A program made the translations under genes and the position numbers. From an uncultured Eubacteriales bacterium (GTDB lineage: Bacteria > Bacillota > Clostridia > Christensenellales > UBA1242): DNA of 64,000 nt. Below the pieces are notes generated by a model. It had not been told where the DNA came from. It saw only the letters and a program-made list of their open reading frames with translations, and did no database searches. This document shows positions 1 through 47,900 of the stretch, piece after piece. The first letter of the stretch is position 1; the number at the start of each line of letters is the position of its first letter. The stretch lies in NCBI GenBank assembly GCA_949841245.1, contig CATKYT010000001.1, forward strand, positions 10,906 to 74,905. Reading direction: 5' to 3'.

Positions 1-2
1 AC

Positions 3-3000
3 TCTAATAATACAGTTATAAAAATTAAGAAAATAGATTTAGGCGCAAGAAATTATGTTATAACCATGGAAAATGGTTTCGGATATAAAGCAAGATTTTA
101 TTTCCGACTTGTCGCTTCAAACAATCCTACAATTAGTGCATCTGATTCAACAACAGTGTTTACAGAAGGAAACAAGATTGTGTTTGGAGGATTATTCCAC
201 AAAGTCAGAGAAGAAGGCATGACTTCATATCAGTTCTTATATGAAGAAGGCAAAACTTCCATAACTGTTCCACAAAACATTATTACTGGCTACACCTTGC
301 AAACAACAACCGTTTCTCATGGAACATTAACCAGAACAGTTTCATCTGGTTTTTCAGGAAACTCAATTGGTTTGACTGGCAAATATTATGACAGCAATAA
401 CACGGAAGTAGAAATAAACGATGCAAGCAGTTTTGCAGGTTGTGAATTCTATTTAAGTCTTAAAGTTGGCAGACAAGAAACGGAAGCCAACAGCCCAACA
501 ATGTTTAGTGTTTCCTATGGTGGCACTGTGCTTAAAACTGGCGAACATGTAATTGGTGTGGAAGAAAAAGCGACGATTGGAGATGAAAACACTGATGTCG
601 TATTCTTGAAAGATGTTGATGCATATGCATATTCAAACCTTTTGAAAGGCATTGACGAAAACTCTTGCAGAAAGTCCAAAGTAAATGGTTATCAAGTTGT
701 TGGCATCGAATTTTTGATTGATGGCAAAAATAACGGTAATCCGGTGGCAGCAGTAAATGTTGAAAACGGAAAAAATGGAGTTCAATTAGTTACGGGTTCA
801 AAATACAGTTTTGTTGAAACTAATTTACTTGCTGTGAAAGGTTATGACTTTAACAAAGATGCTGCTGCAACAGGTGGAATTTCAGTTGATGGAAACTATA
901 TGATTATTCCTAAGATTGACGGAATTTACTATGGCACAAAAAATTATGTCGATGTCACTATGAATGTAACCATTAAATTGGGAACTGAAACAGCCGTAAT
1001 TTCCAGAGATGTCAAAGTTCAAAGACAAGATGACAACGATTTGTTTGCAAATGCAAATTTAAGTTCAGGTTATTATGAAGTGAACAATGGTGATTACATT
1101 GTGGCAAAAACAGGCTTAAACCTTATCAATGACACATTGGAAGTTGTGCTTGAAAAAGATGAAAGTGTTAAATTTAAAATTTCAGTTGACGGTGTAATTT
1201 CAGATGTTTTGGAATTAACCAATTCTCATGATTACACAATTACAGAATATGTTGGAATCACAAGAAATCTTAAAGGTTTGTCTTCAAACTTGATGACTTC
1301 TTCAAGAATAACTATTGAAGAAACAGATTGTGTTGGAAGACCAAGATATTATTACAATGGAGCAGAAATATTTAAAAACCACAATGCAAACGACAACAAA
1401 GGCACATTTACAATTCAAAATTACACAGACAACTCTATTCAACTTAACATCAACAGCAAACAAGAACTTATGGGTTCCAACTTTAAGACGACAACTTTAT
1501 ATTTCTTAAATTCTGTTACAGAAGAAATAGATGGAAATGTAAAAACTTATGTTTACCAAAAAGAAGCAAACTTCCGAGTATATCGACTTTATAACATGGC
1601 AGGAACAACTGAAACTACAACGATAATTAAAGACTATATCAAGGTTACTTCTGGAACACAAACATCATATGCAATTCCATTTGAAAGTTGGGCAAGTTTT
1701 GTTCGTTTGATTCCATGTTATAGTGTTAACGGAAACATCCTTCCAATATTGTTGTCAACGAAATCTCCTTATGCTTTTGCATTTGAAACAACAAAAGGTG
1801 CTTCCGTAGACAAAGCCACAGGTTTAATTGTGACGGATGCCAATATTCAAATAGCCGCATATCGCTTCTCTGTAAAACTTTATTTAAAAGTTTCTGGAAA
1901 CAATGGGCAATTTGAAGATGACCAAAATTTAATTCAACTTGGTGAATTTGAATTTATGCTTGATGAAACCGCAACATTTAACAATGCTGTTGTCAACATT
2001 GATGAAAATGGTGGAGTTATTCAAGTTAACAATGTGGCAAACCCTGCCATTATGGTTGCAAACTATGGCACTCCTGCACAAGTTTATACATGCGCAAACA
2101 GCGCAATAAGTGTTTCATTGTTGAATCATTCAACAGAAAATGTGGCTGATGGAATTTACACAATCCCAGTAAACACATCTGTTGATGCATCAATTGCAAG
2201 TGAAAACACAACAGGTTTCAATAAGTCATACAGAATCGTGGCAATCGATGGCAAATATATTTCAAATCCAAATCATGTGTTTACAAAAAGTGGAAAATAC
2301 ACAGTGACAATTGCTGTGAATTTAAGAAAAGCAAACGAAAACAAGTATACAACAGAATATGTAAACAAAACAGTTTGGGTTTATGACAGACAGTCAGAAG
2401 ATGACATTTACCAAATTACAGTGGATTCCACAAGTGGAAGCAGTTCTTATGATTTGAACAACATTTTAAGTGGAGGCACATGGTATGAACTGAATCAATC
2501 TGGAAAAATTGCAGAATTAACTTCATCAAATGTGTTTTTGGAACCTTCTTCCAATAAACTTAAAGACTATATATTTGTTAAAGATGGAGTTGCAAAACAC
2601 ATTACAGTTTCCTTCTTTGCATATAATGAAGTCGTGGATAAAAAAGTAATGATTACAAACAACACAAGTGCGTTCGACCTTAATCTTATTTCAGATTTAA
2701 AAGACAGACAAATTTATAAAGTTATTGATGATTTACACATGAAATTAACTGGAATGGAAACAAGTTTCAACAAAATTGGAGAATACATCATTACTGGAAA
2801 AAATGCCAACAACGATGAAGAAATTGTCTATAAATACAGAGTAGATTTTGTTAAAGTTCAAGACAACACTACACTTTTAAACATGACAGTAAGTTCCACA
2901 GAAAATTTTGAAACAGAACTTAACAATCTTGTTCAAGAAAATTTGGATTCAAAAAACATCGTATGTGACGAGTTTGAAATTTTTGAAGTAACCAACAAAA

Positions 3001-3413
3001 TCTTTTTGGAAAACCCTAAGTTTGTCATTCCAGAAACACACAAAGAAAACACTTTAAGTGTGGACTATTTGGTGCAATACAAACAAGGAGGAACAATTGC
3101 AGGCAATTTCAAAATCAGAATTTCTTTCACTATTTACAGTCTTGCTGTAAATCTTGAATACGAAATGTCAAGCGTAGGACTTGTTTATTTGACATCTTTG
3201 GATGAAATGTTGCTTGATGAAATAAACAGATTGCAAGGCGAAAGTTTGCCATCGTCAGAAGTGAAATATTATGACGAAAAAGGCAATTTAAGGGAAACAA
3301 ACATAAGAATCATCACTTTCCCAACTACAGCAAAATACTATGTTGAAATTGGCGGAAAATATTTCTTCCTTACAGTGACTTTCACTACACCTGCCACGGA
3401 TGATGGTGTTTAA
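3..3413 (+). CDS. C-terminal part of a large secreted/surface protein; the 5' end lies upstream of the window
   Basis: The frame of listed ORF 66..3413 stays open back to nt 3 (tct aat aat aca gtt ... acc ATG, no stop). There is no SD or signal peptide at Met-66. Composition is Thr/Asn/Val-rich and beta-type, like the other giant proteins here. Confidence 0.6.
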   Translation, partial: SNNTVIKIKKIDLGARNYVITMENGFGYKARFYFRLVASNNPTISASDSTTVFTEGNKIVFGGLFHKVREEGMTSYQFLYEEGKTSITVPQNIITGYTLQTTTVSHGTLTRTVSSGFSGNSIGLTGKYYDSNNTEVEINDASSFAGCEFYLSLKVGRQETEANSPTMFSVSYGGTVLKTGEHVIGVEEKATIGDENTDVVFLKDVDAYAYSNLLKGIDENSCRKSKVNGYQVVGIEFLIDGKNNGNPVAAVNVENGKNGVQLVTGSKYSFVETNLLAVKGYDFNKDAAATGGISVDGNYMIIPKIDGIYYGTKNYVDVTMNVTIKLGTETAVISRDVKVQRQDDNDLFANANLSSGYYEVNNGDYIVAKTGLNLINDTLEVVLEKDESVKFKISVDGVISDVLELTNSHDYTITEYVGITRNLKGLSSNLMTSSRITIEETDCVGRPRYYYNGAEIFKNHNANDNKGTFTIQNYTDNSIQLNINSKQELMGSNFKTTTLYFLNSVTEEIDGNVKTYVYQKEANFRVYRLYNMAGTTETTTIIKDYIKVTSGTQTSYAIPFESWASFVRLIPCYSVNGNILPILLSTKSPYAFAFETTKGASVDKATGLIVTDANIQIAAYRFSVKLYLKVSGNNGQFEDDQNLIQLGEFEFMLDETATFNNAVVNIDENGGVIQVNNVANPAIMVANYGTPAQVYTCANSAISVSLLNHSTENVADGIYTIPVNTSVDASIASENTTGFNKSYRIVAIDGKYISNPNHVFTKSGKYTVTIAVNLRKANENKYTTEYVNKTVWVYDRQSEDDIYQITVDSTSGSSSYDLNNILSGGTWYELNQSGKIAELTSSNVFLEPSSNKLKDYIFVKDGVAKHITVSFFAYNEVVDKKVMITNNTSAFDLNLISDLKDRQIYKVIDDLHMKLTGMETSFNKIGEYIITGKNANNDEEIVYKYRVDFVKVQDNTTLLNMTVSSTENFETELNNLVQENLDSKNIVCDEFEIFEVTNKIFLENPKFVIPETHKENTLSVDYLVQYKQGGTIAGNFKIRISFTIYSLAVNLEYEMSSVGLVYLTSLDEMLLDEINRLQGESLPSSEVKYYDEKGNLRETNIRIITFPTTAKYYVEIGGKYFFLTVTFTTPATDDGV

Positions 3414-3424
3414 GGGGTGATTAC

Positions 3425-4870
3425 ATGTTAGGTTTTTGGCTTTTTATTGCTTACATTTCTTTAAATTTTTTGCTGTTCATTTCCATGGTGTTTTTGGAAA
3501 GAAAAAAACTGTCAGCTGTCATCAGTTGGACGACAATCTTGACAATTTTGCCATATTTTGGTTTTGTGCTTTATTTAATTTTTGGAAGTGGACTTTCCAT
3601 TCGTGTCAGACGAATGATTTCCCGACACAAACTTTATGAATCAGGATATGATGAAGCAATTAATGATTATTTAATTTCTGACAATCAAATCTGGAAAGAC
3701 TTTAAAAACGATGCAAGTTTGGTTGCTTGTGCATACAAATATGGCAGTGTTCTTTGCCCTAATAACAAAGTTAAAATTTTCTTGTGGGGAAAAGACAAAA
3801 TTGATGCCTTAATTGCCGATCTTGAAAACGCCAAACACAGCATCAATATGGAATATTACATTTTTGAAGATGATGAAGTTGGAAAGCGTGTAATGGATGT
3901 GCTTGTCAAAAAGGCAAAGGAAGGCGTTAAAGTGCGTTTCATTTATGATTCCATTGGCAGTTTGCATGCTCCAAGACGCTTCTTCCGTCGTTTGAAAAAA
4001 GCAGGCGGAGAAGTGGCTGAATTCTTCCCACCATTCGCACACATTCGTTTAATCAATTTAAAACTCAATTACAGAAACCATAAAAAAATTGTCGTGATTG
4101 ATGGAAAGATTGGTTACACAGGCGGAATTAACATTCGTGATGACCACATGGGGAAAAAGAAAAGACTTTCTCCATGGCGTGACACTCATGTTCGCATTGA
4201 AGGTCTGGGAGTTTATCCACTTCAAAACTGCTTTTTAAACGATTGGAGATATATTAAAAAAGAAAAATATGCTCCACTTTATTACATTGAAAAGGGTTAT
4301 TTCCCAATTCCAGAACTTACTGGAAACATTGCTATGCAAGTTGTTACTTCGGGTCCAGACAGCCCTATTCAAGGCATAAAAGAAACTTTCATTAAGATGA
4401 TTACAAATGCAAAGAATGAAGTTTTCATTCAAACACCATATTTCATTCCTGATGAATCTTTTGCAACGGCACTGCGGATCGCGTTGGCAAGTGGTGTCAA
4501 GGTTAAAATCATGGTTCCAAGAAAACCTGACCATCGAACAGTTTATTGGGTGACACTTTCTTATTTAAAAGAATTTGTGGACCTTGGTGTGGAAGTTTAT
4601 TTATATAACGGTTTCTTGCACAGCAAAACCATTATTGTGGATGACAACAAACTTTCCATTGGAACATGCAATCTTGATAATCGTTCGTTTGGGCTTAACT
4701 TTGAAGACACTGTTTTGTTTTTTTCAAAGGATTTAAACAATGAATATAAGGGTTATTTCAAAGAAGACGAAAAGCATTGCCTTTATGCCGATAAAGCTTA
4801 TTTTAAAAGAAAACGCCCGCTTACAAGATTTTTACAGGCAATATTCCGATTGTTTTCAGAAATATTTTAA
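3425..4870 (+). CDS. cls: cardiolipin synthase (phospholipase D family)
   Basis: Two N-terminal TM helices and two HKD motifs (NHKKIVVIDGKIGYTGGINI and LHSKTIIVDDNKLSIGTCNLDNRS). SD AAGGGGTGA lies upstream of the ATG. Confidence 0.9.
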   Translation: MLGFWLFIAYISLNFLLFISMVFLERKKLSAVISWTTILTILPYFGFVLYLIFGSGLSIRVRRMISRHKLYESGYDEAINDYLISDNQIWKDFKNDASLVACAYKYGSVLCPNNKVKIFLWGKDKIDALIADLENAKHSINMEYYIFEDDEVGKRVMDVLVKKAKEGVKVRFIYDSIGSLHAPRRFFRRLKKAGGEVAEFFPPFAHIRLINLKLNYRNHKKIVVIDGKIGYTGGINIRDDHMGKKKRLSPWRDTHVRIEGLGVYPLQNCFLNDWRYIKKEKYAPLYYIEKGYFPIPELTGNIAMQVVTSGPDSPIQGIKETFIKMITNAKNEVFIQTPYFIPDESFATALRIALASGVKVKIMVPRKPDHRTVYWVTLSYLKEFVDLGVEVYLYNGFLHSKTIIVDDNKLSIGTCNLDNRSFGLNFEDTVLFFSKDLNNEYKGYFKEDEKHCLYADKAYFKRKRPLTRFLQAIFRLFSEIF

Positions 4871-4872
4871 AC

Positions 4873-4907
4873 AAAAAAAAGACTTTACAAAATGTAAAGT
4901 CTTTTTT
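4873..4907. terminator. bidirectional rho-independent terminator between convergent cls and 4922..5437
   Basis: A-run, then stem agactttaca / tgtaaagtct with loop aaa, then T-run. Confidence 0.6.
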
Positions 4908-4921
4908 AAAGTCAAACTGAC

Positions 4922-5437
4922 TTATTTGATAATTCCTTTTTTGTCAAGGATAATTAAAGTAACGCTTGCTGCAAGAAGAACTCCGCCTATAACCATAAAA
5001 GCAATTGACAAATCTCTTAAAACAAAAGATGTGTTGCACTTCATAATCATTTTTTCACTTGTAGTTGGATTAAGTCCGCTAATTTCAAATGAATTAATTT
5101 TTCCTACTTCATTATATAAGCTATCTTCTGTTTGAGCAATAAGAAGTTTGCCGTCTTCTATTTTATAGAAAACAATCATTGGATCCATGCTTAAATCTTC
5201 TGAAACTTCTCCATTTATTTTTGTTTCTGATTTTATTTCAAGTTCTTTAGCGTTTTTGAAAGTATAATATGCTACGCTTTCAGCAGATTGCCCGCCAAAT
5301 TCCATTTTTGCACTATAATGATATGTAGTGCCGTGTGGAACTAAGCAAACCACCATCAGAACCACCATAAATGCCACAAACAAAATGCTTGAAATAATTG
5401 CAAGTGGTGTTTTTGAGAATTTTAATAAACCTTTCAT
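4922..5437 (-). CDS. small membrane-anchored surface protein (N- and C-terminal TM helices), unknown function
   Basis: 171-aa ORF with hydrophobic helices at both ends and SD AGGAGG 6 nt upstream of the ATG. It is driven by the poly-C-spacer promoter at 5471..5499. Confidence 0.6.
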   Translation of the reverse strand: MKGLLKFSKTPLAIISSILFVAFMVVLMVVCLVPHGTTYHYSAKMEFGGQSAESVAYYTFKNAKELEIKSETKINGEVSEDLSMDPMIVFYKIEDGKLLIAQTEDSLYNEVGKINSFEISGLNPTTSEKMIMKCNTSFVLRDLSIAFMVIGGVLLAASVTLIILDKKGIIK

Positions 5438-5470
5438 TTCAACCTCCTTTTTATTATTTTCTCATAATTA

Positions 5471-5499
5471 ATTATAAACGGGGGGGGGGAATTTGTCAA
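5471..5499 (-). promoter_or_regulatory. sigma-70-type promoter TTGACA-17-TATAAT whose spacer is AATT-C10-GTT
   Basis: The minus strand reads TTGACAaattccccccccccgttTATAAT. The -35 is at 5499..5494, the -10 at 5476..5471, and the spacer is exactly 17 nt, 10 of them the homopolymer. Confidence 0.6.
5480..5489. repeat. G10/C10 homopolymeric tract (candidate slipped-strand phase-variation site)
   Basis: Counted directly: g at 5480 plus ggggggggg at 5481..5489, in an otherwise AT-rich intergenic region. Confidence 0.9.
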
Positions 5500-5526
5500 T
5501 TAAATTTAACACAAACACAATAGTAT

Positions 5527-5555
5527 TTGGAAAACCTTTGTTTTTTGGTTATAAT
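5527..5555 (+). promoter_or_regulatory. putative promoter TTGGAA-17-TATAAT for 5574..6122
   Basis: TTGGAA at 5527..5532, a 17-nt spacer, TATAAT at 5550..5555, followed by SD AAGGAG and TTG at 5574. Confidence 0.4.
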
Positions 5556-5573
5556 TTAATAAAGGAGAATAAG

Positions 5574-6122
5574 TTGGACGCAAGTGATTTTACAAGCAGA
5601 GATGTTGCTTACAAAGGTTTTGTTGCTTACAGAAAAGCAGTTTTAGACCACGAAGAAGACGGAAGATTTATGGACGCTTTCACAGAACTTTGTGCCATTG
5701 CTCTTTCTGGCGATTGTGTTGCACAAGATTGTGTAGCATATTTTTTCAACCGTGGTGTTCCAAATTTGTTAAGTCCAAATTACAACTATTACATGTCTTG
5801 GCTTATTTTGGCTGGGGCAAACGGAAACATCTTCGCCATGGAAAAATTGGAATTTTTCTTGGGAAAAGTTGTTGAAGCCATTATTGATGATGAAGAAATT
5901 TTATATTATGCATTAAAAAACAGAAACATATCCAAAAACAACGCCATACATGTCATCACAAATCTGCTTTGTGAAGGTGTTGTGGATGAATTGAAACTTA
6001 ACCCAAAAAATCTTATTGAAATAAAGAAAGAGAAAATTGAATACTCTCCACAAAAAGAAAGAGTTTTCACAACCGCGCTTGACAATTGCATTAAACGTGT
6101 TTTGGAATATTTAGTGTCTTAG
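5574..6122 (+). CDS. hypothetical protein (start moved to TTG 5574)
   Basis: The listed ORF 5493..6122 starts inside the divergent promoter. The in-frame TTG at 5574 has SD AAGGAG 6 nt upstream and its own promoter. No recognisable motif. Confidence 0.5.
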   Translation: MDASDFTSRDVAYKGFVAYRKAVLDHEEDGRFMDAFTELCAIALSGDCVAQDCVAYFFNRGVPNLLSPNYNYYMSWLILAGANGNIFAMEKLEFFLGKVVEAIIDDEEILYYALKNRNISKNNAIHVITNLLCEGVVDELKLNPKNLIEIKKEKIEYSPQKERVFTTALDNCIKRVLEYLVS

Positions 6123-6631
6123 TCAACAACCATAAAGCCTTCTGTGGCAAAACTTTCAGCAAAAACAGAAGAAACTGATGTGATGATTTGGTTGCACATT
6201 TCAAGTTCTCCACTTTTAATTGACAACATCATCGTCTTTAAAATAAGCAAGTTTTCCAAAGAAACAAGACTTAAAAATGCCATATTATCATCTGCCACAC
6301 ATTTCATTTTGTGTGGTTTTTTATAATCAAACTTTTCACAAAGCAGTTCTTGTGCTTGACTTAGACGCTCTTTTAAAAGCCCTGAATCCAAATTGCTGTC
6401 AAGTTTTTTAAGACAAGCCTGCATTTTAGATATTATGACAAGAACTTCTCCGATAAGCAATCTAAATTCTTCATCTTCCAAGCGAATAAAAACAAAACCT
6501 TTGTTTTTCAGTGATTTTGAATATGCTTTTGCAATTGTTTCAAAATCTTCTGGCATCATTTCGTCATTATACTCATATTTCATATTTGTTTTTATGTTTG
6601 CTTTTTTTATTTTGACAACAAAAAAGCACAA
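6119..6631 (-). CDS. hypothetical protein downstream of the coupling-protein gene (start uncertain)
   Basis: 170-aa ORF on the same strand as 6692..8668. No motif recognised and no clear SD. Confidence 0.4.
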   Translation of the reverse strand: MCFFVVKIKKANIKTNMKYEYNDEMMPEDFETIAKAYSKSLKNKGFVFIRLEDEEFRLLIGEVLVIISKMQACLKKLDSNLDSGLLKERLSQAQELLCEKFDYKKPHKMKCVADDNMAFLSLVSLENLLILKTMMLSIKSGELEMCNQIITSVSSVFAESFATEGFMVVD

Positions 6632-6691
6632 ATATTTGTGCTTTTCTTTTTTATTTAAATTTAAGTTTTAAAAACTTGCCAAAATTTTATT

Positions 6692-8668
6692 TTATTCAAA
6701 TGGATTTCTTGGTTTCAAAACTTTGCTGTTTCTCATCTTGATGTCATAATGAACTTTTGCTGTGTCAAGACTTTTCATGATTCCAACTGACTTTTGTGCG
6801 TCTTTTGTATAGAAGAACGGTGTTTGATAATAAGGTGTAAGTTTTAAACGCATTGGGTTATATCTGAAAAGTTTAACAATGACTGTTCCAACTTCCAACT
6901 GACCAAGTTCGTAAGGGGAAATAAGGGCGCGAGTTGTTCTTTGTGTGTTGGTTGTCGTATTGCGTTCAGAAATGTTTTTATCATTTTTAGAAACCGATGT
7001 TTCTTCGTGAAGCAACTGAACCTCTCCACACATTTTAGAGAAACTGTCACGAGTTGGTTGGTCGTCTGTTCCGATGAAGATTTGAGCGTTGCAGTTTCCA
7101 ATGATTGTTTTGGCTGCTTCTTGACCATATTTAGTTTCCAACTGAGTGTAGGACTGAACTGCCAATTCGTAAAGAATGTTTCTGCCACGGGAAACGGTGA
7201 TCATGCTGTCAAATTTTGGAATAGGTGGCAAGTTACCAAATTCTTCCAAAATAAAGTAAACATGGTTTGGAAGTTTTTGTCCAGCGCATGAGTTTGCCTT
7301 GTCAACCAAACGTTTATAAAGTTGTGACAAGCAAAGAATTGCCAAGTTGTGTCTTTCTTCTCTGTCATCAGGAATAATCAAATAAAACGCGGTTGGTTTG
7401 CTTGTGAAATCGTCAAAACTTATGTCACTTTGAGAAGTAAGGTAAGATATTCCAATGTCGTTCATGAAAGAGATTTTTCCGTTCAAAACACCCAAATAAG
7501 ATTTTGTTGTGTTTGGAGAGTTGTTGATTACGGCACTTGTCAAGTTTGGAACATTGGATGTTGCATCATCTCTGCCTTGAAGCAAATATCTTCTGATTGT
7601 GTCAAAAGGTGCTTCGGCATCTGGATCTCTGTAAGTGGCAATTTTGTAAAGATTATAGAAATTGAATTTTTCTTTTGTCATGCCAAGTTCAGGATTCATG
7701 CTGTCTTCCAGCATAGCAAGGGCAACGCCATAAAGGAAATCTTGTGCACCTTCTTCCCATGTTGGGTCTTGTGCTTTAGATTTTGGAGCAATTGTGTTGA
7801 CAATTTCTTTAAGTTCGTTTTGTGCAAGGTCGCAATAAACTTGTTCGGCACTTGCAACGGCAACTCTTAAACTGTCTTCATCTGGATAAGCCACTCCTTC
7901 AAAACCAAACCAAAATTCGCCATATTTTTCATTTGGAATTTCTTCATAGCCAGCGTTTTTTGGTTTTATATTGCCAGGGAATTTTTTAATGTTGTGTCTG
8001 CAATTTTTCCCTTTGTGATATGTTTCATATGCGTGTTCCATTGGATTCCATCTTGTGGAAGAAAACGGATCTCTAAGGTCAAGTGTGATGACTCTGTAGC
8101 CTTCGTCTTCCAAAATTTTGCTGGTCTTTGTGTAAAGTTCGCCTTTAGGGTCGGAAATTACCATGCAAGGTTTTTCTCCAGAGTGAGCGTAAATTCTGAT
8201 TGAAGGAATTAAACATAAAGTTGATTTACCAGATGCCGTCGTTCCGATGATAAGACAATGATATTCATCTTTCATGGCAATTTGATATTTTCCGCCTTCA
8301 ATTGTGTTTCTAAACACAATTCCTGTTTTCTTTAAAGATGGCAAAGCAGACCATGTTGTTGCAATTAATTTTTGTTGATCTTTAATTTCTTCTGGCTTAA
8401 GCCATTTTGCATCATAGTTCAAATCCATGACATCGCCACTAGATGTTTTTCCTTGGGATTTAGTTAAATCTTTGCTTGGCTTTGTCATAAACAAATAAAA
8501 CAGCCAAAGCGCAAATCCGGCTGCAAGACCTATGCCACCATATTGTAAAAGATTAGAAGTGTTAAAACCACTGTCTAACGCATAAGAGATTCCAGCGCCA
8601 GCAGCAGCACCGAAAATTAAAAATAAAGCAAAAATTGTTATTTTACCTTTTTTTACTTTTTTAGACAT
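6692..8668 (-). CDS. type IV secretion coupling protein, VirD4/TraG/TraD family
   Basis: N-terminal TM helices, Walker A GTTASGKST, Walker B-like VYFILEEFGNLP and a family-typical C-terminal region (VSRGRNILYELAVQSYTQLETKYG). SD AAGGAG is present. Confidence 0.85.
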   Translation of the reverse strand: MSKKVKKGKITIFALFLIFGAAAGAGISYALDSGFNTSNLLQYGGIGLAAGFALWLFYLFMTKPSKDLTKSQGKTSSGDVMDLNYDAKWLKPEEIKDQQKLIATTWSALPSLKKTGIVFRNTIEGGKYQIAMKDEYHCLIIGTTASGKSTLCLIPSIRIYAHSGEKPCMVISDPKGELYTKTSKILEDEGYRVITLDLRDPFSSTRWNPMEHAYETYHKGKNCRHNIKKFPGNIKPKNAGYEEIPNEKYGEFWFGFEGVAYPDEDSLRVAVASAEQVYCDLAQNELKEIVNTIAPKSKAQDPTWEEGAQDFLYGVALAMLEDSMNPELGMTKEKFNFYNLYKIATYRDPDAEAPFDTIRRYLLQGRDDATSNVPNLTSAVINNSPNTTKSYLGVLNGKISFMNDIGISYLTSQSDISFDDFTSKPTAFYLIIPDDREERHNLAILCLSQLYKRLVDKANSCAGQKLPNHVYFILEEFGNLPPIPKFDSMITVSRGRNILYELAVQSYTQLETKYGQEAAKTIIGNCNAQIFIGTDDQPTRDSFSKMCGEVQLLHEETSVSKNDKNISERNTTTNTQRTTRALISPYELGQLEVGTVIVKLFRYNPMRLKLTPYYQTPFFYTKDAQKSVGIMKSLDTAKVHYDIKMRNSKVLKPRNPFE

Positions 8669-8754
8669 AATAAACTCCTTATAGATTTATTTTAAACATA
8701 AAAACAAAAAAAAGCAAGTAAAGACAAAGATTTTTTCAGTTTTAAGGCAATAAA

Positions 8755-8783
8755 TTGACATTACATTCAAAAGACATTATAAT
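8755..8783 (+). promoter_or_regulatory. consensus promoter TTGACA-17-TATAAT for tRNA-Arg
   Basis: TTGACA at 8755..8760, a 17-nt spacer, TATAAT at 8778..8783. The tRNA starts 12 nt downstream. Confidence 0.6.
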
Positions 8784-8794
8784 AAGAAAGAAAT

Positions 8795-8869
8795 GCTCTC
8801 ATAGTGTAATGGATAGCACACGAGTCTTCGGAACTCGGCGTATGGGTTCGAATCCTATTGAGAGCGCCA
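8795..8869 (+). tRNA. tRNA-Arg (anticodon UCG), CCA encoded
   Basis: Acceptor stem gctctca/tgagagc. Anticodon stem cgagt/actcg with loop cTTCGga. T-arm atggg-ttcgaat-cctat. Discriminator g followed by cca. Confidence 0.9.
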
Positions 8870-8910
8870 AATTTTATTGAATTAACTTTTTAAAGGAGTG
8901 GTAAATTTAA

Positions 8911-9344
8911 ATGCAAGACGGTGTTATGATTATGTCCATCTTGACTTATTATGCCAAACAAATATTTGATGGAACTAAAAATTTTGAGTTTAGAAAAAGA
9001 CCGCTGAAAACTTCTGATTTAAATCGTGAATTTTTGTTTATTCTGCAAAGGATGACAAGTCGATTATAGGTTCTTTTAAGGTGAAAGAAATTTTGCATGG
9101 AAATACCACTGAAATTTTGAAGTTAACGGGTTATGATAAGAGAAATGACACATATGAAATAGTTGAATATTTTGGACAAGCAAACAAAAACTGCTATGCT
9201 TTAAGACTTTATGATGTTAAAAAGTTTAAAAATCCTGTTACATTGAATCAGTTAAGAAGTGTCAATCCAAAAGTGCAACTGCCACAATATTATTGTTATA
9301 TAAAAACAAACAACCCTTTATATTCACTTATCTGTAAAAATTAA
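8911..9344 (+). pseudogene. ASCH-domain protein gene interrupted by a 1-nt frameshift in a T-run near 9031..9040
   Basis: ATG 8911 with SD AAAGGAG gives MQDG..IFDGTKNFEFRKRPLKTSDLNREF and then a stop at 9066..9068. The other frame is open from 9030 and reads ..YSAKDDKSIIGSFKVKEILHGNT.. into listed ORF 9081..9344. Joined, the two parts resemble one ~140-aa ASCH protein. Confidence 0.6.
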
Positions 9345-9354
9345 GGAGAAAATA

Positions 9355-9951
9355 ATGAGAATAGGAATAGATATTGACGGAGTTTTAACTGATGTATACC
9401 GATTTATTTTAGATTATTTAAGTAAATTCTGTGTTGAAAATAACATTGATTATTGCGTCGGAGAAAGTTTTTATGACGAGTCAAAAACTTTTGGAATTGA
9501 CAAAATTGATGCCGACAAGTTTTGGGATGAATATATAGAATTTTATTCAAAACATGTAAAAGCCAGACCATTTGCGTCTGAAATTATAAAAAAACTTAGA
9601 AGTCTTGGTCATGAGATTTTTATTGTTACAGCAAGATGGCTGACAAACAGGGATGATAAAATTGGCAATAAAATGCGAAAGACTGTAAAGAAATGGCTTG
9701 CTGATAATAAAATCTTATATGAAAAATTGGTATTTTGCAAAGCACAAGATGAAAGAAAAGTTATGGAGATTCTTGACAACAAAATAGACATTATGATTGA
9801 AGACAGCCCCAAAAACATAGATGAGTTATCAAAGTTTGTCAAAGTAATTTGCTTTGATAATGATTATAACAAAAAATGCGGGGGGGGGAATATAACTAGA
9901 TGTTGCAGTTGGTATGACATATATAAAGCAATTGAAAATAAAAAGTTGTAA
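9355..9951 (+). CDS. HAD-superfamily hydrolase, 5'(3')-deoxyribonucleotidase-like
   Basis: N-terminal DxDGV motif (IGIDIDGVLTD) and SD AAGGAG. Contains the in-frame G9 tract at 9880..9888. Confidence 0.65.
   Translation: MRIGIDIDGVLTDVYRFILDYLSKFCVENNIDYCVGESFYDESKTFGIDKIDADKFWDEYIEFYSKHVKARPFASEIIKKLRSLGHEIFIVTARWLTNRDDKIGNKMRKTVKKWLADNKILYEKLVFCKAQDERKVMEILDNKIDIMIEDSPKNIDELSKFVKVICFDNDYNKKCGGGNITRCCSWYDIYKAIENKKL
9880..9888. repeat. G9 homopolymeric tract inside a coding region (encodes GGG)
   Basis: Counted directly (tgcg ggggggggaa). It lies 21 codons before the stop of 9355..9951. Confidence 0.9.
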
Positions 9952-10142
9952 AGAAAAGAAATAAGTTTTAAAGAGTTTTTTAAAAGTTGAAATGTATAAA
10001 GATTGTGGCTTATATGAAGAAATTTTCAAATTGCTTTCTGTCTGCAATAACTAAGTTGGTGAGTTGGTTTTCAAAAAACTTTCAAATTTGTGGTAAACAA
10101 CTTTAAAAAGTTTTTTCTTAGTGAAATAATAAAGTGAGAAAG

Positions 10143-14591: not shown

Positions 14592-14620
14592 ATTATAACA
14601 TTGACAAAATTCTATGTCAA
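14592..14620 (-). promoter_or_regulatory. consensus promoter TTGACA-17-TATAAT for the metK leader
   Basis: The minus strand reads TTGACAtagaattttgtcaatgtTATAAT. Confidence 0.65.
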
Positions 14621-18623: not shown

Positions 18624-18687
18624 AAAGGAACATTAGTTTCTTTTTTTTCATAAAATATTTGACAAATTTTCAATGAGGTAAAATATA

Positions 18688-19377
18688 ATGAAAAAACTTA
18701 TGACAATAATGGCATGTTTTGCTATGATTTTAGTGGGTGGTTTGACACTTGCTGGATGCGGTGGTCCAACAGAAACCGAAATCAGTGCAACAGAGGCACA
18801 AACTTTCATTAATTCACAAGATTTTGAAAGTAAGTTTGCTGGTGGATATTTATATAAAATGGCAGGTGGAATTCTTTCTACACAAGTAAAGTTCAACAAT
18901 GGCAACATTGCGGAATTTAAATATGAATCAAACCAAAGCGCTGAAAACTTCAAGTTATACATTAAAGATGGCAAAGCATACCTTGACACAGAAGATACAA
19001 AAGTTTGGGCAAACGTTCAAGATATTGAAGACACTGAATATGGTCCTTATTTTAAATCCATTATGGATTCAGTAGATGTAACCCATGTTACAAACTTGGT
19101 TAAACAACAAGCAGTTGTATATTACACCAAATTCATCAAAAAAGTTGATGGAAACAAAACTGAACTTGTTTGCAGTGGTGAACATGAAGGAGTTACCGCT
19201 CAAATCAGTTTAACCTTTGTTGACGGAAAATTGGAAAAAGTTGTTGGTTCTCAAAAGGGTCAAGAAGTTTTGACACTTGAAACACTCAACACAATTGTTT
19301 TTCCAGACTTAGTTGGATATGAAGAATATCAAGAACCAAGCATTGAAGTTGACCCAGAACAAACAGTGGTTGCTTAA
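18688..19377 (+). CDS. lipoprotein, unknown function
   Basis: Signal peptide with lipobox LTLAGC. Confidence 0.7.
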   Translation: MKKLMTIMACFAMILVGGLTLAGCGGPTETEISATEAQTFINSQDFESKFAGGYLYKMAGGILSTQVKFNNGNIAEFKYESNQSAENFKLYIKDGKAYLDTEDTKVWANVQDIEDTEYGPYFKSIMDSVDVTHVTNLVKQQAVVYYTKFIKKVDGNKTELVCSGEHEGVTAQISLTFVDGKLEKVVGSQKGQEVLTLETLNTIVFPDLVGYEEYQEPSIEVDPEQTVVA

Positions 19378-38980: not shown

Positions 38981-41900
38981 ATGAAAAAGTTTAGCATTGT
39001 TTTCATGTCAATTTGTGTGACCTTTCTGGCAACACTTTTCTGTGCTTGTTCTTTTAAAAAGCCGGAAGCACAATTTTCTAAAACTGAACACATAGTTTCA
39101 ATTGGTGACCAAATTGATTTGGATGAATATTTGCAATTAACGGGTGTGAGTAAAACTGACCTCACATATCGTTTTTCTGATTCTTCCTTATTTGAAGTAG
39201 ATGGACATAAAATTAAAGCCAAGGCTTCAGGAAAGTCTAAGGTTTATGCTTTTTATGAAGAAAGCAATCTTGCATCAATGCAAGTGGTTGTAAGAAAACA
39301 ATTTGACGCGCCAAATTCAATTCGTTTTGAAGATGGGAATTTAGTTTGGAATACTGTTACTGGTTGGTATGAAGGTGAAGCATTACACACTGTCGCAAGT
39401 TCTTACACAGTTGAGTGGGAATATAACAGTGCCAATAATGAAAAAGAAATTGGCATTGAAATAGTTGAAACAAACAAATTGGATATGACAGATTTTAAAT
39501 CTGGTGTTTACAATTTCAAAGTTAAGGCAAACACTCATCAATATTTTGACGCAAGTGAGTTTGCGGTGGCTGACCCTGTTTATTATGGCTTTATGCAAAA
39601 AATTAAAGAAGAAGATTTTGATTGGAACTTTGACACAGGTGTTTTGACTTGGCAACAAATGGAAGATGCAAAGTTTACTGTCAGACTTAATGGTGCTTTG
39701 CTTAACGATTTGGCAGGAGCAGATTCCAATGGATACATAACAACAAATGCTGTGGACCTTACAAGATATTTAAGTGATGCAAACAGCGGAGATTATGACA
39801 TTACAGTTACGGCATATGACATCAATGGTGTTAAATACGAAATGGCAAGTGAAAATTTTGTTGTTACAAAACTTGCAACTCCTGTTGTTTCAAACGATTT
39901 CACAATGTCAAACGGTGGACAACTTTTAATAAAGACAAATCAAAGTGTCGAGAGTTTTAAAGTTATTGCCGAAAACAGCATCGTTGGAAAACTTGAATTT
40001 ATCTTAGAAAATGCTGGACAAGACTTAATGACATCATTAGACTTTTTGAAAAGTGGTGTTTATGACATCAGCGTTGTTGCTGAAAATCATGATGAAACAA
40101 GGCATTACTTTAAAAGTAGACCTGCCATTTTTGGGAAAGTTTACAAACTGCCGGCAGTTACTTTGACTGGTAAAGGTGCAAACACTGAGAATGGAACAGC
40201 CTTTAATGTTGAGGTTGAAAACACAGCGATTGTCGAAACATCTTTAAAAGTAAGTTCTAAAGATGACACTCAAATTTTTAATAATTTCACAAATGGTTTT
40301 TCTTGGACGGCAAATGCCAGTGGACAATATAAACTTAGTGGCGTTTTGCAATCAAAGAGTGCAACTTCCAGCATTGATGGAAACATGGTTTATATCATAA
40401 ACTCAAATGCCAGTGAAGAACTTGTTTTGACAAAATTAGGTGCAGTTGGCGTTGTTATGCACAAATATGAAAATGGTAATTCTGTTTTGACATTCAGCGA
40501 AGTGGACTATGCCGACCAAAACTGTTATCAAATTTTACATTTCAATGGCGTTGATTATGAAAAAGTTGAAGAAAACAAAATTTCTTCAATTACAGTTTCC
40601 AATAAAGTAGTAACTGTTGTTTTAAGTGGCAGAGTAGAAACTTTGTTTGAAGCAATTGACTGTGAATTTGAATTTAAAATTGTGGCAAACACTTTGGACA
40701 GTTCTACATCAATAAGTTCCACTGCAAACAAAACACTGACACTTCTTGGACAACCAACAGCACCAGAAACAGGAAATCCACAAAATGGAGTCTTTGTTTG
40801 GAACGCTGTGGAAAATGCAGATAAATACAATGTGGAAATTTATTATACAAACAACAAAGATATTTTTGAAAGCAAAGATTTAAGTTTGTTTGAAAAGACA
40901 ATCACAATTACTTCTGAAACACAACTTCGTTTTAACAAAGTTGGATATTACATAGTTCGTGTGTATGCGGTTGCCGACACTGCAAGTGAAAACCTTTATA
41001 TTTCATCTGCTGTTGCGTTGGAAAGAACTTTTCACATTTCTGAAAAAGTGTCAATTGGCAATGTGCAATTGAGAAACAATGGAAGCAATATATTTTTAAG
41101 AATTTTTAACAACGACAGCAATGTTAAAACTTATACAATCAGTGTTACAGGTCAAGCGGACGAAACTTTGGTGGCAAGTGGAGAAAGTTATGATGATTAT
41201 ACATTAAACAAATCTTTCTTTGCACAAGATACAGAAATTACAGTCACAGTGACTGCGAATGCCAGTGACACGACTTTAAGACCTTCTGACAGTTACAGTT
41301 TAAGTGTGGAAAAACTTAGAAATGTAACTCCTGACGATGTTTTGGTGGAAGATGACCATGGTTATTTAATCAGTTTGGTGCCTTATAAAAATGGTTTAAC
41401 TTCAAAAATCACTTATGACGCAAGCAATAAAACCAGTGCTAAAAATCAAAAAGCTACACTTGATGTTTCAAATGTTGGTGCAGATGAATTTAATTTAACT
41501 TTTGAATTTGTCGGCAGTGATTTAATCAATGGAATATATGATGTCAAAGATAACAAAGTGTTCCTTAATTGTGATGAAGGTTCTAAGACAATTGCATTTT
41601 CCAGAATTGCAAAGCCAGAACAACTTATCTATGAAAATGGAAAATTCAATTTCGTTGCAAATGGAATACCTGCAAACAGTTACAGCTATGTTTTGGAAGC
41701 GACTTATAAAAATGCCAACAATTCCAACTTTTTAATTGCAATAAAATTTGATGGAACAGTTACAGCCACAATTGGTGGAAGCAATGAAAAAATTGTTCTT
41801 GGGCAAAATCAAGACTTTATTGATTTGGCTGCAAATACAATTGATTTCAATGCTATTGAAACAGCAATTAATTCCAACGCAAAATTGGAAGCATGTTACA

Positions 41901-44900
41901 GACAAATGGAAAATCCAAAATTTTCGTTGTTTGTCAGTTACAAACAATATGACACAATTTCAGAAAAATATCTGTTTTCATCAAGAAATTCTGTGGAAAC
42001 ACAATTGGAAAAATTGCCAGAAGCAGATTTAAAATTCCGTTTCATCGATGAAGAAAACAAATTCAAATTTTCTTGGCAAGTTCTTGAAACTTCAAGTTTA
42101 GAAATTTCAAATGTAAATTATAAATTGTTTGTCAATGCTGGAAACACAAGTTTTGAAGAAATTTCTGGCTTTGCTGTCAATTATGAAACAACAGATGACA
42201 AAAAATTTGCTTACATAACATTGAATGCACAAGACTTTGAAGCAGGCGTTTTCTATAATTTCTATTTATCAGCAACTCAACCACATTTTCTTGGAACAAG
42301 TGTTTCCAACAATTTGATTGTTTACAGACTTAATTCTGTAAACGCTTTGACATTAAATGAAAACAAACTTGATGCAAATGTAACAGATGCGGGATATGCA
42401 CAAAAAGTAATTGTCACTGTTGGGGGCAATGCACAAGAATTCACAGTTGAAGCAAATGGCAATTTTGCCATCCCTGTTGCAGGAGAAGGTGAATATGCTG
42501 TTAAAGTTGTGGCGAAAGAAAGCAGTTTCAATGAAGTTACAAAGACAGAAACTTTTTATATTGACAGTTTGCAAAGCAAATGGACACTTAAATCTCTTGA
42601 TGCTGTTGCAAGCGAAAATGTTCCACAACTTAGATTTTCAAATGAAATCGTAAGTTGGGATAAGTTTGCTGGAAACTTTGGAGAAAACTTGCATTATGTT
42701 TTAATATTTAAAGACCAAAATTCTGTTACGGCAGAAACAACAACGCACAAAGTTGAAGGAAACACTGTCAGTGTTGAATTAGACGAAAAGTCACAAATTT
42801 ATAAAGATTTGTCAAAACTCAGTGCGGGAGAAATAGAAATTCAAGTAAGTGCTTATCTTTCAAGTTACAGCACAAGCAAAAATGGCGTCATTTATTTTGC
42901 CGATTCTCAAACTCTTTTAAATGGAAAACAAGAATTTAACCACTTTGTATATCAAAAGATTACAAACAAAAAATTGGCTACTCCAAACATAACCAACATA
43001 ACATTTGATAAAGGCACAGATGACAGTAAAGTGGAAAATCCTGATGTGATTGTGACTTTTGAAGGAGATTATGATTTCCAAAATGGAACAGGCAATGACA
43101 GTTTCAAAATTTTTGTTTCATCAACAGCAACAACAGAAAGAACGCAGTTGAATATGACAATTTCAGAAAAAACAACAGGAGTTTTTGAATTTGTTTTAAA
43201 TGCAACAGACTATGCTTTCGTTCAACCAGACGAAACACTTATTTTGGAAATTTTGGCTGTTTCAAGTGTAAATATGCCATCAACTTTTGGAAGTAAAGAT
43301 GTTTACATGGCAAAACAAGTTCGAAGTGTCGAATTTGAAACAGAACTTGAAAATGGAAAGGAATTTGCCAAACAAAATGTAATTGTTACTTTAATGGACA
43401 ACTCAGCCAATTATGTTTTAGGTGGAATTGTTTTAAAAGTTACTGACAAAACAACAAACAAAGTTTATTACATAAATTTTGATGCAACAATTGTGGCAAA
43501 CACCATCTCTTGTGATTTAACAGATTTCGTTAAAACGAATTTAAAGAGTGGTGCAAACATAAGCGTGGAAGCATTTATAAACAGTTATTCTGAAAGTGGA
43601 AACTACATCTTGGCTTGCAAGAACAAAGTTACAACAGACATCACTGAAAACATAGTCGTTTTAGGTGGTGTGGCAACAACAGACAGTTACGATGAAACCA
43701 CAACATATAATGACATTCACTATCGCGCTGATGCGGGTGGTTTTCAAATTCTTCCTGCAACAGGAAAAACACTTTCAGATGACTTGATTTTTGTCGTGTC
43801 TTACAAAGTGGGAGAATATTCTTTTGAAACAAAAGAAATCACAAAAGATGACAATTTCTATTTTGAATTTCCTGCCGTATGGACCGATGAAGGTGAATAT
43901 GCTTTAAGTATATACGCTAAGCAAAGCCAATCTGAATTGGAAGGTGTGACAAATGTTTATGTTAATTCATGGACAAACACTTTGACTTTCCAAATCAACA
44001 GAGCAGAAAAAATAAGTCAAGTGCAAATTTCAAGAGATGAAACTAATCCAAGTGAACTTAACATTGAATGGAACAGTGTGGCAAATGTCAGCGAATATAT
44101 TTTCAGAGTTTACAACAATGTAAATGGAAAACTTATATTCTCGACAACCACAACATCCAATGTGAACACACTTTCTCAGTTGTTCTGGGCAAACTATAAT
44201 GATTTTGAAAATGTAAATCTTACAATTGGAACGACTGACATTGACGCTAGGTTTGAAGTTATTTCAGTTGGAAAAGATGGCACAAGCAATTCTCAGGCTT
44301 ACACCTTCTTTGCATATTTAAGACCAAATAATTTAAGTTATCAAAGTTTGGAAGTTTTGCAAGATTATGGAACGGTGACTTTGGCAACATTGCCTAACTA
44401 TTCTTATCTTTACAGATTTGTTTCTGGAAATGCAGTTGTTCAAGATTGGAAAAAGGTTACTGCACAAACCACTGAAACCACCCTTGACACATCCGAACTT
44501 GAAATTGAAAGTGGCAATGCTTTTAATGTCGAAATAATTATTTTGGGCAGTGCCGACAATAATGACACAACAATTACCGAAAATGCCACAAATTTTGTTT
44601 TTGATTCTTATGTTTGGACTTCGGCACTTTCTTCAATCAGACTTGGTAAATCAAGTTCAATTTTGAATGTAAGATATGACCAAACTGATGCGACAAGCAT
44701 CATCTTAGAAATGAGCCAAGCTACATTTGCCAACCTTTCAAAAGTATTGGTGGGCGTGGAAGAAAATGCTGTGTTTACTCAAAAAGTTGTAAGTTTAAAA
44801 ATTGATCAACTTTCGGAATGTGGAAATGCTGATGGAGATGCTTCAAATCCAATTGACACAACAAGAAGAAGTTATGCTTATCCACTTTCAGATATGTTGG

Positions 44901-47900
44901 CAGTTTTGAAAGAACTTGGAGTAAATTATGCATCTGGCAATATCACAGTTTATTTCTGGACTTTGGAAAATGAAGTTGGTGGGCTTACATATGTTGTTTC
45001 TGATGCGTTTGGTTTTGACATTGCTTTGTCAGACGACATTGGATTTGTAAAAGTTGACAAACTTGGAAATAATGCGGTGCCAGAAGATAACGCCAACACA
45101 TTTGTGTTGTTTGAAAAAAATGACAATCTGTTGACATCTCAAACTCTTGGAATCAATGTAAAGATTGATTATGTTGAAACAACTTACATTTATGACGAAC
45201 GCGGAAATGTCATAGATGTTCAATATGCTGATGCAACCGCATATAGATTTATTGATGTCACTAAACTTAAAGCAGAATATCCTTATTATGATAATCAAGA
45301 TTATTATGTGATTGATTTAGTTAAGATGTTTGAAGAAGAAGGACTAAACAGCATTACTGGAAACATTTCTCTTGAATTTTTAAGAGTTAGATTCAACTTA
45401 ACTCAACAGATGTTTATTGTTACTGATTGGCTTTCTGGTTTTGAATTCGTAAGGCTTGCTCCTATTACTTATGCAACACTTTCTGGTGGAAACATCGAAT
45501 GGAGTGCAGGTGATGCAGTTAATGCCGAAGGATATTACATCTATTTCTTTGCCGTAGATGCAGACGGAAATAAATCTGACAGTTACAGCCGTTTTGAAGT
45601 GGGAAATCAAACAGCATTTGACGCTTCCAAATTTGGCGGACAAAACTGCTTCATTGAAATTCAAGCAATAAGTTCAAATCCATTTGTTTTGGCTTCCAGC
45701 AAATATTCCGTTTCGGAAGACCCAATAATCAAAAATCAACTTTCAGGCAAATTGAAACTTGCAGGTGGAAGTTTTACAATAGATTATGACAACAAAAATG
45801 GCGATGCTTCAAACAATATTTATAAATTCATTACAGAAAACAGAGATTCTTCACTTACTTTTGAAGAAAGAGCAAAAATTTTAATTGAAACAACTTGGAC
45901 ATATCCTTTTACATTTAAACTTGCTTCACTTTTAAACGGACAAGTTACTTTGAGAATGACTTTCATTTCAAATGAAACAAATAAGACTCAGTCTGTCGAT
46001 GTAAATGCAAAAGACCTTTTGACAAATCTTGCAGAGTTTGCAGATAATAATGATGCTTATGACATTATTGCCACTTTGGAAGAATGGGCACAAGGCTCTA
46101 CAACAGAAAGTTATAAACGCACTCTTGAAGATTTTATGGGTTTCATAGAAAAAGGAAGCCATGGAGTTGCGAATGAAAACATCATTTTTGACTCTTACTT
46201 TGAAAAAATTCAAGCGGGAGAATATTCGATTGTTTATTGTTTACTTGGCGGTTCAGCATCTTTAAATTCAACTTGGATGACTTTTGAAAATCAAAATATG
46301 GAAGGCAACAATTCTGTTTATGTCAATGGCGAAACCACTGTGACAGCAAAACGCGAAAAAATTGATTCTGTGACAAACAGTTATAAAGTTGTTGTCAAGA
46401 AAGAAAAAATTTATGATTTTGTTGATGGTGCTTACACTGCTGTTGATGCCAGTCAATATGTGCTTCAACTTGCCACAAAAGCAGAAAGCGATAATGGCAA
46501 AAGTTATGCCTTTTCAATTGACAATTTCAGCGGAGATTTCAGACTTCATTATCTGTCAGCAAACAGTGACACTTCAACTTTTGACACCAGCAAATCCATT
46601 TCTGTTTATCAATCAGATAAAGATGGCAACAAGGTTACACTTGGCGAATATTTAATGTTCTATATCAACCAAAATAATGGCGATTCCATTTTAGGTGTCT
46701 TTGGGGACATGGTTCCAAGAACAATTTATGGAATGCAAATCTATGCAGTTGGAAATGACAATTCCTTGTCATCAAAATCAGAGTATTTTAAACTTACACT
46801 TTTAAGTTTTGGTGATGATTTTGCCATTACAGACGGAGTATTAAGTTGGACAACTCAACTTAACAGAAACATCACAGTGATGTATCGCACTTTGCGTGGT
46901 TCGGAAATGACAGAAGAAATTGTTACAGAAAATTCTTATGCAACTTACAGCCTTGATGGTAAGGGTGAAGGAACTTACAGTTACATCAAATTTGTCGTAG
47001 CAGGTGGAGATGTAGTTGACAACAACATCATGGTTGACAGTGACATATTTGAAATTGACAATGTATATAAACTTGCTTCTCCAAAGCTTACCAACTATCT
47101 TGGTTATTTAAGCATTGATGAAACGCAAAATGGCAACAGAACAAGATATAATTCAAGTTACAGTGATGGAAGTTTCTTCCAATACATGATTTACAACAAC
47201 AATAATGACGATGTTTACATCAAACGAGTTGACACAACACTTGGAAACAGTGTCGAAGGAAATGGTGCATTCCTTTATGTTCCTGGTCGTGATGGCGAAG
47301 AAGATTACAGATATAAAAGCACCGAAGTTAACGCTGAAAATTTCCAAGTTATCTCTGTTGGGTCTACTGTTGAAAATGTTAGTTTTGCTCGTGACCAATC
47401 TGACATTGATGAAAATGGTTACAACAAAAAATATTACATCAACAGACTTGACACATCATCTTGGACCAATGCACAAGGTAATCCACTTTCTGCAATTGCC
47501 CTGCAAAGTTCTGCTGCATCACTTTCAGCCAGAATGCTTGACAGTGTGCAAAACTTGAAAGTTACAAATGGTCGAGTTGTTTGGTCTGGCGTTGAAGGCA
47601 GAACAGAAGATGATGGAATTTTGACAGTGGAAAGTCAAGCGGAAATTATTTATAAGGTTTCAATCGAACAATATTCAATTTCGAAAACTGATGACAACAC
47701 CAGCACAGAATACACCGAACAAATTGTTGAGCCTGTTTACACAAGAAATGCCGAACTTGATTTTGCTGACATTGAAGATAAGTTGGAAATTTTAGATTCT
47801 GACAAACAAATTTTCATCAAAATTTCCGTTCAAGCATTGGCACTTTTTGCACAAGCAAACAAACCAAACACAAATTATGTAGAACTTATTTCGGGTGGTT

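Follow-up and report, generated by a model that had tools for sequence, protein, structure and literature searches.

The stretch of DNA analysed here, referred to as the window, comprises 64,000 nucleotides from an uncultured Eubacteriales bacterium and has a GC content of 33.4%. It is of chromosomal origin and encodes DnaB, BipA, GluRS, pyruvate formate-lyase together with its activase, MetK and MscL; a plasmid megablast with positions 4000..9000 returned no matches. The local gene order is conserved in the relatives used for comparison (metagenome-assembled genomes, MAGs, labelled "Clostridia bacterium" or "uncultured Eubacteriales bacterium"). It runs from a VirD4-like coupling protein of the CD1115 family through a 154-aa gene and a 182-aa gene to a divergent intergenic region, on the other side of which lie a 171-aa gene, the cardiolipin synthase gene (cls) and a gene for a giant protein of 3,902 aa. 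Truncation of this giant gene in the window (1..3413, + strand; the product has a weak match to PKD and reaches 3,902 aa in the relatives) was ruled out, as the window merely opens inside the ORF. A separate giant ORF of 3,796 aa is found at 38981..50371 (+ strand), and both are presumably large surface proteins.

The 171-aa gene is encoded on the minus strand (4922..5437, ATG at 5437) and is preceded by a complete promoter of the sigma-A/sigma-70 type, TTGACA-17-TATAAT (5471..5499, minus strand), which matches the consensus at 12 of 12 positions. Its -35 hexamer TTGACA lies at 5494..5499 and its -10 hexamer TATAAT at 5471..5476, and the spacer between them reads, on the minus strand, AATT, ten C and GTT, so that the poly-C tract appears as G10 at 5480..5489 of the plus strand. 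The ribosome-binding site AGGAGG (5443..5448, minus strand) is located 5 nt before the ATG. The initial annotation had described exactly this arrangement, with a 10-nt run in the spacer of a perfect promoter followed by AGGAGG and the start of a 171-aa gene, and every element of it is present in the minus-strand sequence from 5499 to 5471 and beyond. A C10 run in the spacer of a predicted 12/12 promoter, at the correct distance to the ribosome-binding site and ATG, is the layout of a promoter-spacer type of switch. An intrinsic-terminator-like hairpin with a 15-pair stem and a T-rich tail (4875..4907, minus strand) follows directly after the stop codon, which indicates that the 171-aa unit is monocistronic; the terminator is common to this gene and the convergent cls gene.

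The run was also said to be very improbable in DNA this rich in A and T, and the composition of the window bears this out: only 0.0026 G/C runs of at least 10 nt are expected at 33% GC, and G10 is the longest in the window. The 64 kb contain six G/C homopolymers of 5 nt, none of 6–8, one G9 and this one G10. A promoter scan of 4500..7000 gave 5471..5499 as the sole 12/12 site, and no alternative of comparable quality was found upstream of the 171-aa gene. Over the whole window there are five perfect TTGACA-N15-19-TATAAT sites, compared with 0.19 expected from shuffles, and four of the five have a 17-nt spacer and stand shortly upstream of a gene on the same strand. In addition to 5471..5499, these are found upstream of tRNA-Arg (8755..8783, + strand; the tRNA begins at 8795), upstream of the ORF at 11810, a DNA_binding_1/MGMT-type protein in the related locus L016 (11730..11758, + strand), and upstream of metK, ending at 14494 (14592..14620, minus strand), while the fifth TTGACA...TATAAT site lies at 18659..18689 (+ strand). 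The placement of the four 17-nt promoters before genes of their own strand gives indirect but reasonable grounds for considering 5471..5499 as a functioning promoter, and 17 nt as the favoured spacing in this genome.

The divergent gene is served by a promoter of its own, TTGGAA-17-TATAAT (5527..5555, + strand), composed of TTGGAA at 5527..5532, 17 nt and TATAAT at 5550..5555, followed by AGGAGA and a TTG start codon at 5574, and kept in relatives including L011. Gene callers place the start at TTG 5493 (209 aa, 5493..6122), a codon that falls within the opposing promoter's -35 box. The more plausible start is TTG 5574 (182 aa, 5574..6122, + strand), considering the AGGAGA located 5 nt upstream, the dedicated promoter and the fact that the L011 homolog is called at 182 aa. 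Look-ups of the exact product, in its 182-aa and its 209-aa form, found neither on record. The -35 box of this promoter begins 37 nt beyond the tract, in agreement with the distance of about 40 nt given by the initial annotation.

The 171-aa protein was modelled with AlphaFold2 from a 62-sequence alignment (pLDDT 94.3, pTM 0.81). The predicted fold consists of a transmembrane helix (residues 11–32), eight strands spanning residues 38–133 and a second transmembrane helix (135–166), which agrees with the transmembrane helices at both ends and exposed middle that had been read from the sequence. The protein is lysine-rich at both termini and acidic in the middle, and according to the positive-inside rule the lysine-rich termini would place the beta domain outside; we infer that this ectodomain faces outward. 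The designation as a surface protein thus holds in the sense of a membrane protein that has two transmembrane helices and a small ectodomain resembling a beta-barrel, and does not hold in the sense of a classical adhesin, as judged from the predicted structure. Searches of the 171-aa, 182-aa and 154-aa proteins against Pfam, PHROGs, NCBIfam and PADLOC gave no matches, and an exhaustive profile search with the 171-aa protein retrieved 121 cluster representatives, which are similar in size and none of which has a name. In PDB and BFVD, Foldseek found nothing at E <=0.001. The top matches were 4id2 (DUF4738, E 0.011), 8u2f (ToxS, E 0.026) and 5kew_B (VtrC, E 0.19); the matches as a group are small calycin-type barrels including L-FABP, and are weak (E 0.01–0.2, TM-scores 0.26–0.43). 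A weak Lipocalin_4 match (E ~0.004) is seen in 3 of the 62 family members, the window protein itself having no Pfam match. The calycin-like fold class is therefore to be taken as a lead rather than a result. In its predicted structure, the protein resembles ToxS, VtrC and DUF4738 in carrying a small eight-stranded beta domain outside the cytoplasmic membrane on a transmembrane anchor, but unlike these barrels it has a second, C-terminal transmembrane helix, and no ToxR/VtrA-like partner gene adjoins it.

The ectodomain is also where the protein varies most. Compared with homolog P0003, the N-terminus and first transmembrane helix are 100% identical and the second helix with the C-terminus 89%, while the ectodomain is only 67% identical; the corresponding values for P0004 are 89%, 78% and 42%. 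At the nucleotide level, the ectodomain-coding segment (5036..5329) is 78.2% identical between the window and locus L017, although identities of 97.7–100% are found between the same two for cls, the giant gene and the genes of 182 and 154 aa. Such a divergent segment amid near-identical flanks means that one species carries different alleles of the ectodomain while the rest of the locus hardly differs, and suggests that these alleles are exchanged or selected within it. A divergent ectodomain on a constant backbone is typical of exposed, selected surface molecules. Surface exposure of the product, a typical though not indispensable mark of the class of switches to which the tract is compared below, is thus predicted from the TM-beta-TM model, the lysine-rich termini and the ectodomain divergence.

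The length of the tract was compared among strains, as the initial annotation had proposed. Exact-protein and homolog look-ups yielded 13 additional assemblies containing the upstream region (14 including the window) from NCBI MAGs, ENA and Logan, and all lengths given here are assembly consensus calls from short-read metagenomes or MAGs. The tract is not invariant: it is C8, C9, C10 or C11 among the 14 assemblies. The window has C10 with a 17-nt spacer, and L001, which encodes an identical protein, has C9 (16 nt). C8 (15 nt) is found in L002/L016 and L003 (99% protein identity), in L006/L017 (78%) and in L011 (55%), and C9 (16 nt) in L005 (87%), L015 (84%) and L007–L010, the protein of the latter being the same as that of L006. 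L012 (56%) has C11, with a 17-nt spacer after a weaker -35 hexamer, TTTTCA; the observed spacers thus cover 15–17 nt, and a spacer of 18 nt would result if C11 followed the standard TTGACA. In the majority of assemblies the tract is C8 or C9 and the spacer 15–16 nt, which makes the optimal 17 nt of the window the minority state. Three of the C9 observations come from SRR36323886-8, which have consecutive run numbers and identical sequence and hence may not be independent; they are probably related samples. Scans of JGI metagenomes, by protein patterns and by a DNA pattern tolerant of tract length, were both empty and added no strains.

The surroundings of the tract are far more constant than its length. 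Both hexamers are unchanged in 9 aligned loci, the -10 being invariant and the -35 invariant in the close clade, the AGGAGG is kept in the alignment, and the tract ends 42–43 nt before the ATG in every related assembly. The neighbouring spacer bases vary (AATT/AACT, GTT/GAG) while the C-core stays, and the tract is kept uninterrupted down to 55% protein identity. In the distant homologs (30–35% identity), the corresponding position has a conventional promoter that lacks the tract, as seen for L013 (35%, TTGACT-18-TATAAT), L014 (30%, TTGACAAATTTCG) and the P0006 loci (31%). On this comparison, the tract appears as a lineage-specific expansion that has been maintained since, and its maintenance across lineages argues for a function.

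The length changes are specific to the tract. Over 6,517 aligned nucleotides the window and L001 differ by four substitutions and a single indel, which is the tract; L006 and L010 differ by no substitution over 1,999 nt and again by one indel, the tract; and L006 differs from L007, L008 or L009 by 30 substitutions and the same single indel. L002 and L003 are identical with the tract included, as are L007, L008 and L009, and the identical tracts in L002/L003 and L007/L008 indicate that the length calls are reproducible between samples. In an alignment of eight loci (8.7–13.8 kb), all other indels in the close clade track the strain relationships, whether they concern a codon of the gene, the terminator or a T8/T7 run, and the tract length differs between sister sequences and is incongruent with the phylogeny. 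The T run in the terminator (4873..4880) is T8 in the window, L001 and L017–19 and T7 in L016, L005 and L015; it is constant between near-identical sequences, unlike the C tract. The tract is the sole phylogeny-incongruent indel among near-identical strains, and its polymorphism between close strains is well in excess of the background indel rate, another mark of this class of switches. The homoplasy of tract lengths on the strain tree is a hint toward switching, as is the break of the L004 contig 7 nt from the tract, described below. Changes that are confined to the tract and incongruent with the phylogeny are what a hypermutable repeat should produce, whereas ordinary divergence or random errors of assembly would not be expected to give such a pattern.

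Taken together, we consider it likely that the tract acts as a phase-variation switch or rheostat of the promoter-spacer type, in which the spacer varies in length. The phase-variable switch put forward by the initial annotation is supported as far as tract-specific length variation between strains is concerned.

Several other explanations were weighed against this one. The tract could be a neutral mutational hotspot which slips without regulating anything, the transcript having its start elsewhere or the spacer length being of little consequence. The promoter is predicted from sequence and conservation, and the "suboptimal" spacers of 15–16 nt in most assemblies could mean that there is no selection on length. 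However, a neutral G/C run in a genome of 33% GC should decay by acquiring interruptions, and no locus of the clade has any; the tract lies exactly between two invariant consensus hexamers at a fixed distance from the ATG, its lengths are limited to those giving spacers of 15–18 nt, no rival promoter of comparable quality is present upstream of the gene, and the same consensus with 17-nt spacers is used by other genes in the window. On balance, neutral slippage is unlikely.

The differences between C8 and C11 could instead be homopolymer miscalls in short-read assemblies, the real tract being of one length. The four substitutions between the window and L001 (5500, 5512, 5521 and 5523), the only ones in 6.5 kb, lie directly 3' of G10 (plus strand), in the interval that separates the -35 boxes of the divergent promoters, and the remaining close loci carry the L001 state at all four positions. 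Clustered substitutions after a homopolymer are a pattern typical of post-homopolymer read errors, so the four are either real changes in the UP-element region or an assembly artefact of this type. A second G-linked oddity is the G9 run at 9880..9888 (+ strand; codons GGG GGG GGG), inside the ORF 9355..9951 for a 5'-nucleotidase of the NT5C/HAD type, which is found in the window alone, L016 having GGAGAAGGG (Gly-Glu-Gly) at this site; it either arose by two recent A-to-G changes or is an assembly artefact as well. Because of these two oddities, the C10 of the window is less secure than the C8/C9/C11 differences elsewhere, and the count in the window itself may be wrong. The Logan contig of L004 (SRR32497465_235314), finally, starts 7 nt 3' of the expected tract position, which counts on the side of an artefact; it may reflect a break of the de Bruijn graph from mixed tract lengths, or low coverage. 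Against miscalling as a general explanation, the varied lengths recur in independent samples and assemblers (NCBI MAGs, ENA, Logan), the replicate samples agree (L002 with L003, and L007 with L008 and L009), and no A/T homopolymer or other site has incongruent indels over 8.7–13.8 kb. Miscalling would also leave unexplained why loci with as little as 55% protein identity still have an unbroken tract flanked by invariant hexamers. We therefore consider it quite unlikely that the tract has only one real length. As for the G9 run, it was ruled out as a second contingency locus, being specific to the window.

A different possibility is that the tract acts mainly on the divergent 182-aa gene, or on the two genes together, by altering the helical phasing or distance of the back-to-back promoters. 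The overlapping back-to-back promoters of Haemophilus hifA/hifB are tuned by the phasing and distance between them. The tract lies 37 nt from the divergent -35, and the four substitutions peculiar to the window are all found in the 27-nt interval from one -35 box to the other; both facts would fit such an effect. The tract is however situated outside the core and UP-element region of the divergent promoter, the two promoters do not overlap, unlike those of hif, and the divergent promoter's own 17-nt spacer is fixed in all loci. This reading is very unlikely; the divergent promoter is a neighbour of the switch, and nothing supports an effect of the tract on it. A recombinase-driven invertible promoter, with the G/C run being incidental, is extremely improbable and was rejected: the weak 24-nt inverted repeat which could suggest it (5454–5477 and 5549–5572, 75% complementary) is accounted for by the resemblance of the divergent promoters in their -10/RBS regions, no gene for an invertase or recombinase adjoins it, and all assemblies spanning the intergenic region have a single orientation.

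Returning to the poly-C tract as the variable spacer of the 171-aa gene's promoter, slipped-strand mispairing in the C/G run at replication would lead to the gain or loss of single bases. As the run lies between the fixed TTGACA and TATAAT, each length change resets the distance between -35 and -10: a C8 tract would correspond to 15 nt, C9 to 16, C10 to 17 and C11 to 18. A spacing of 17 nt is optimal for sigma-70/sigma-A promoters in general. By this rule, and by analogy with porA and tp0126, the perfect consensus with C10 and 17 nt should be strongly ON, spacers of 16 or 18 nt should have reduced activity, and the 15 nt of C8 should be nearly OFF. Because the hexamers are perfect, a graded "volume control" is expected rather than a strict ON/OFF switch. 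It may even be a modest dimmer, with 16- and 18-nt spacers still quite active; C8 would be the effective OFF state. The output would be one small two-transmembrane membrane protein from a monocistronic unit, with its beta-rich ectodomain turned outward, and the divergence hotspot in the ectodomain would fit an exposed target of antibody, phage or similar pressure. The prevalence of C8 and C9 among the populations sampled suggests either that full expression tends to be disfavoured or that mutation is biased toward contraction. We infer the transcriptional effect, as well as the reversibility, the switching rate and the selective agent.

Among the closest known systems are those of pathogenic Neisseria. 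The poly-C of fetA and the poly-G of porA lie between the -10 and -35 elements, and the fetA tract varies from C10 to C14 among strains (PMC5320596). For porA, the optimal spacer is 17 nt, with stepwise loss at 16 and 15 nt (PMC5320596, citing van der Ende 1995). The present locus resembles porA of N. meningitidis and fetA (frpB) of N. gonorrhoeae and N. meningitidis in having a G/C homopolymer of strain-variable length in a promoter spacer, and the 171-aa protein, as predicted here, resembles their targets, which are surface-exposed membrane proteins with antigenically variable exposed parts. It is unlike them in its host, an uncultured low-GC gut Clostridia member of the Gram-positive type instead of a proteobacterial pathogen, and in its target, a two-transmembrane cytoplasmic-membrane protein of an uncharacterised family instead of an outer-membrane porin or receptor. 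Transcription of tp0126 (an OmpW homolog) in Treponema pallidum also depends on a poly-G between -35 and -10, and is best at 17 nt (PMC7864442). In the tp0126/tpr promoters, as here, poly-G tracts of ~7–11 are found within the promoter, and lengths of 8–11 coexist and differ among strains; in T. pallidum the variation within strains was followed by fragment-length analysis and its effect by GFP reporters, whereas the differences reported here are between assemblies. The locus shares the two sequence-level traits of the porA/fetA/tp0126 class and very probably works like these in mechanism. In Mycoplasma hyorhinis, a poly-A in the -35/-10 spacer controls the variable surface protein genes vlp, gene by gene. 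These are similar to the present case in belonging to a low-GC, Firmicutes-related organism and in having a homopolymer in the promoter spacer, but they involve poly-A, a multigene lipoprotein family and repetitive coding regions, while here a single poly-C locus serves a non-lipoprotein with two transmembrane helices.

What is new is therefore the host, an uncultured gut Clostridia member, and the target protein family; the mechanism is already known, and the understanding of promoter-spacer switching itself is unchanged by this locus. A literature search, which was not exhaustive, found no example of such a switch in the Clostridia, and no priority is claimed. To our knowledge, phase variation by simple sequence repeats has been worked out almost wholly in pathogens (Neisseria, Haemophilus, Campylobacter, Helicobacter, Treponema and Mycoplasma), and the known switches in gut commensals are mostly invertible promoters. 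A poly-C spacer switch at this locus would mean that the same contingency-locus logic operates in uncultured gut Clostridia, and would single out the two-transmembrane, beta-ectodomain family (121 cluster representatives) as one on which the host, phages or competitors exert pressure. At this locus, public metagenome reads could also be used to measure switching directly. It is the single conserved tract in the ~64 kb, a count that describes this window and not the genome-wide repertoire. A more elaborate reading, which we regard as rather doubtful, is that of a two-layer cassette, in which the poly-C rheostat is combined with a replaceable ectodomain and real UP-element changes, and the ToxS/VtrC-like barrel acts as a ligand sensor (e.g. 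for bile salts) or as a phage receptor. Display of the ectodomain would then be gambled on at the population level, and the locus would, if this is true, be the first contingency locus to be defined in a non-pathogenic gut Firmicute, obtained from metagenomes alone.

Some minor observations concern the far side of the divergent gene. A scan of 4000..10000 against Rfam gave tRNA-Arg alone above threshold and, below threshold, a match to the Salmonella sRNA STnc40 at 6619..6685 (minus strand; 31 bits for a gathering score of 45, E 0.018), which overlaps a terminator-like hairpin (6622..6645) and is most likely due to chance. The lone VirD4-like coupling protein (NCBIfam conju_CD1115; 6692..8668, minus strand) adjoins tRNA-Arg (8795..8869), and its gene is ~91.6% identical between strains compared with 98–100% for the neighbouring genes. 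In L017 (1..6200), an element encoding an integrase, an HTH_17 protein, a DNA methylase and a Toprim protein is found upstream of the VirD4 gene, at the site occupied by tRNA-Arg in the window, and the cargo at this position in the window and in L016 differs from that in L017. The VirD4/tRNA-Arg site is likely an integration hotspot or a remnant of a conjugative element.
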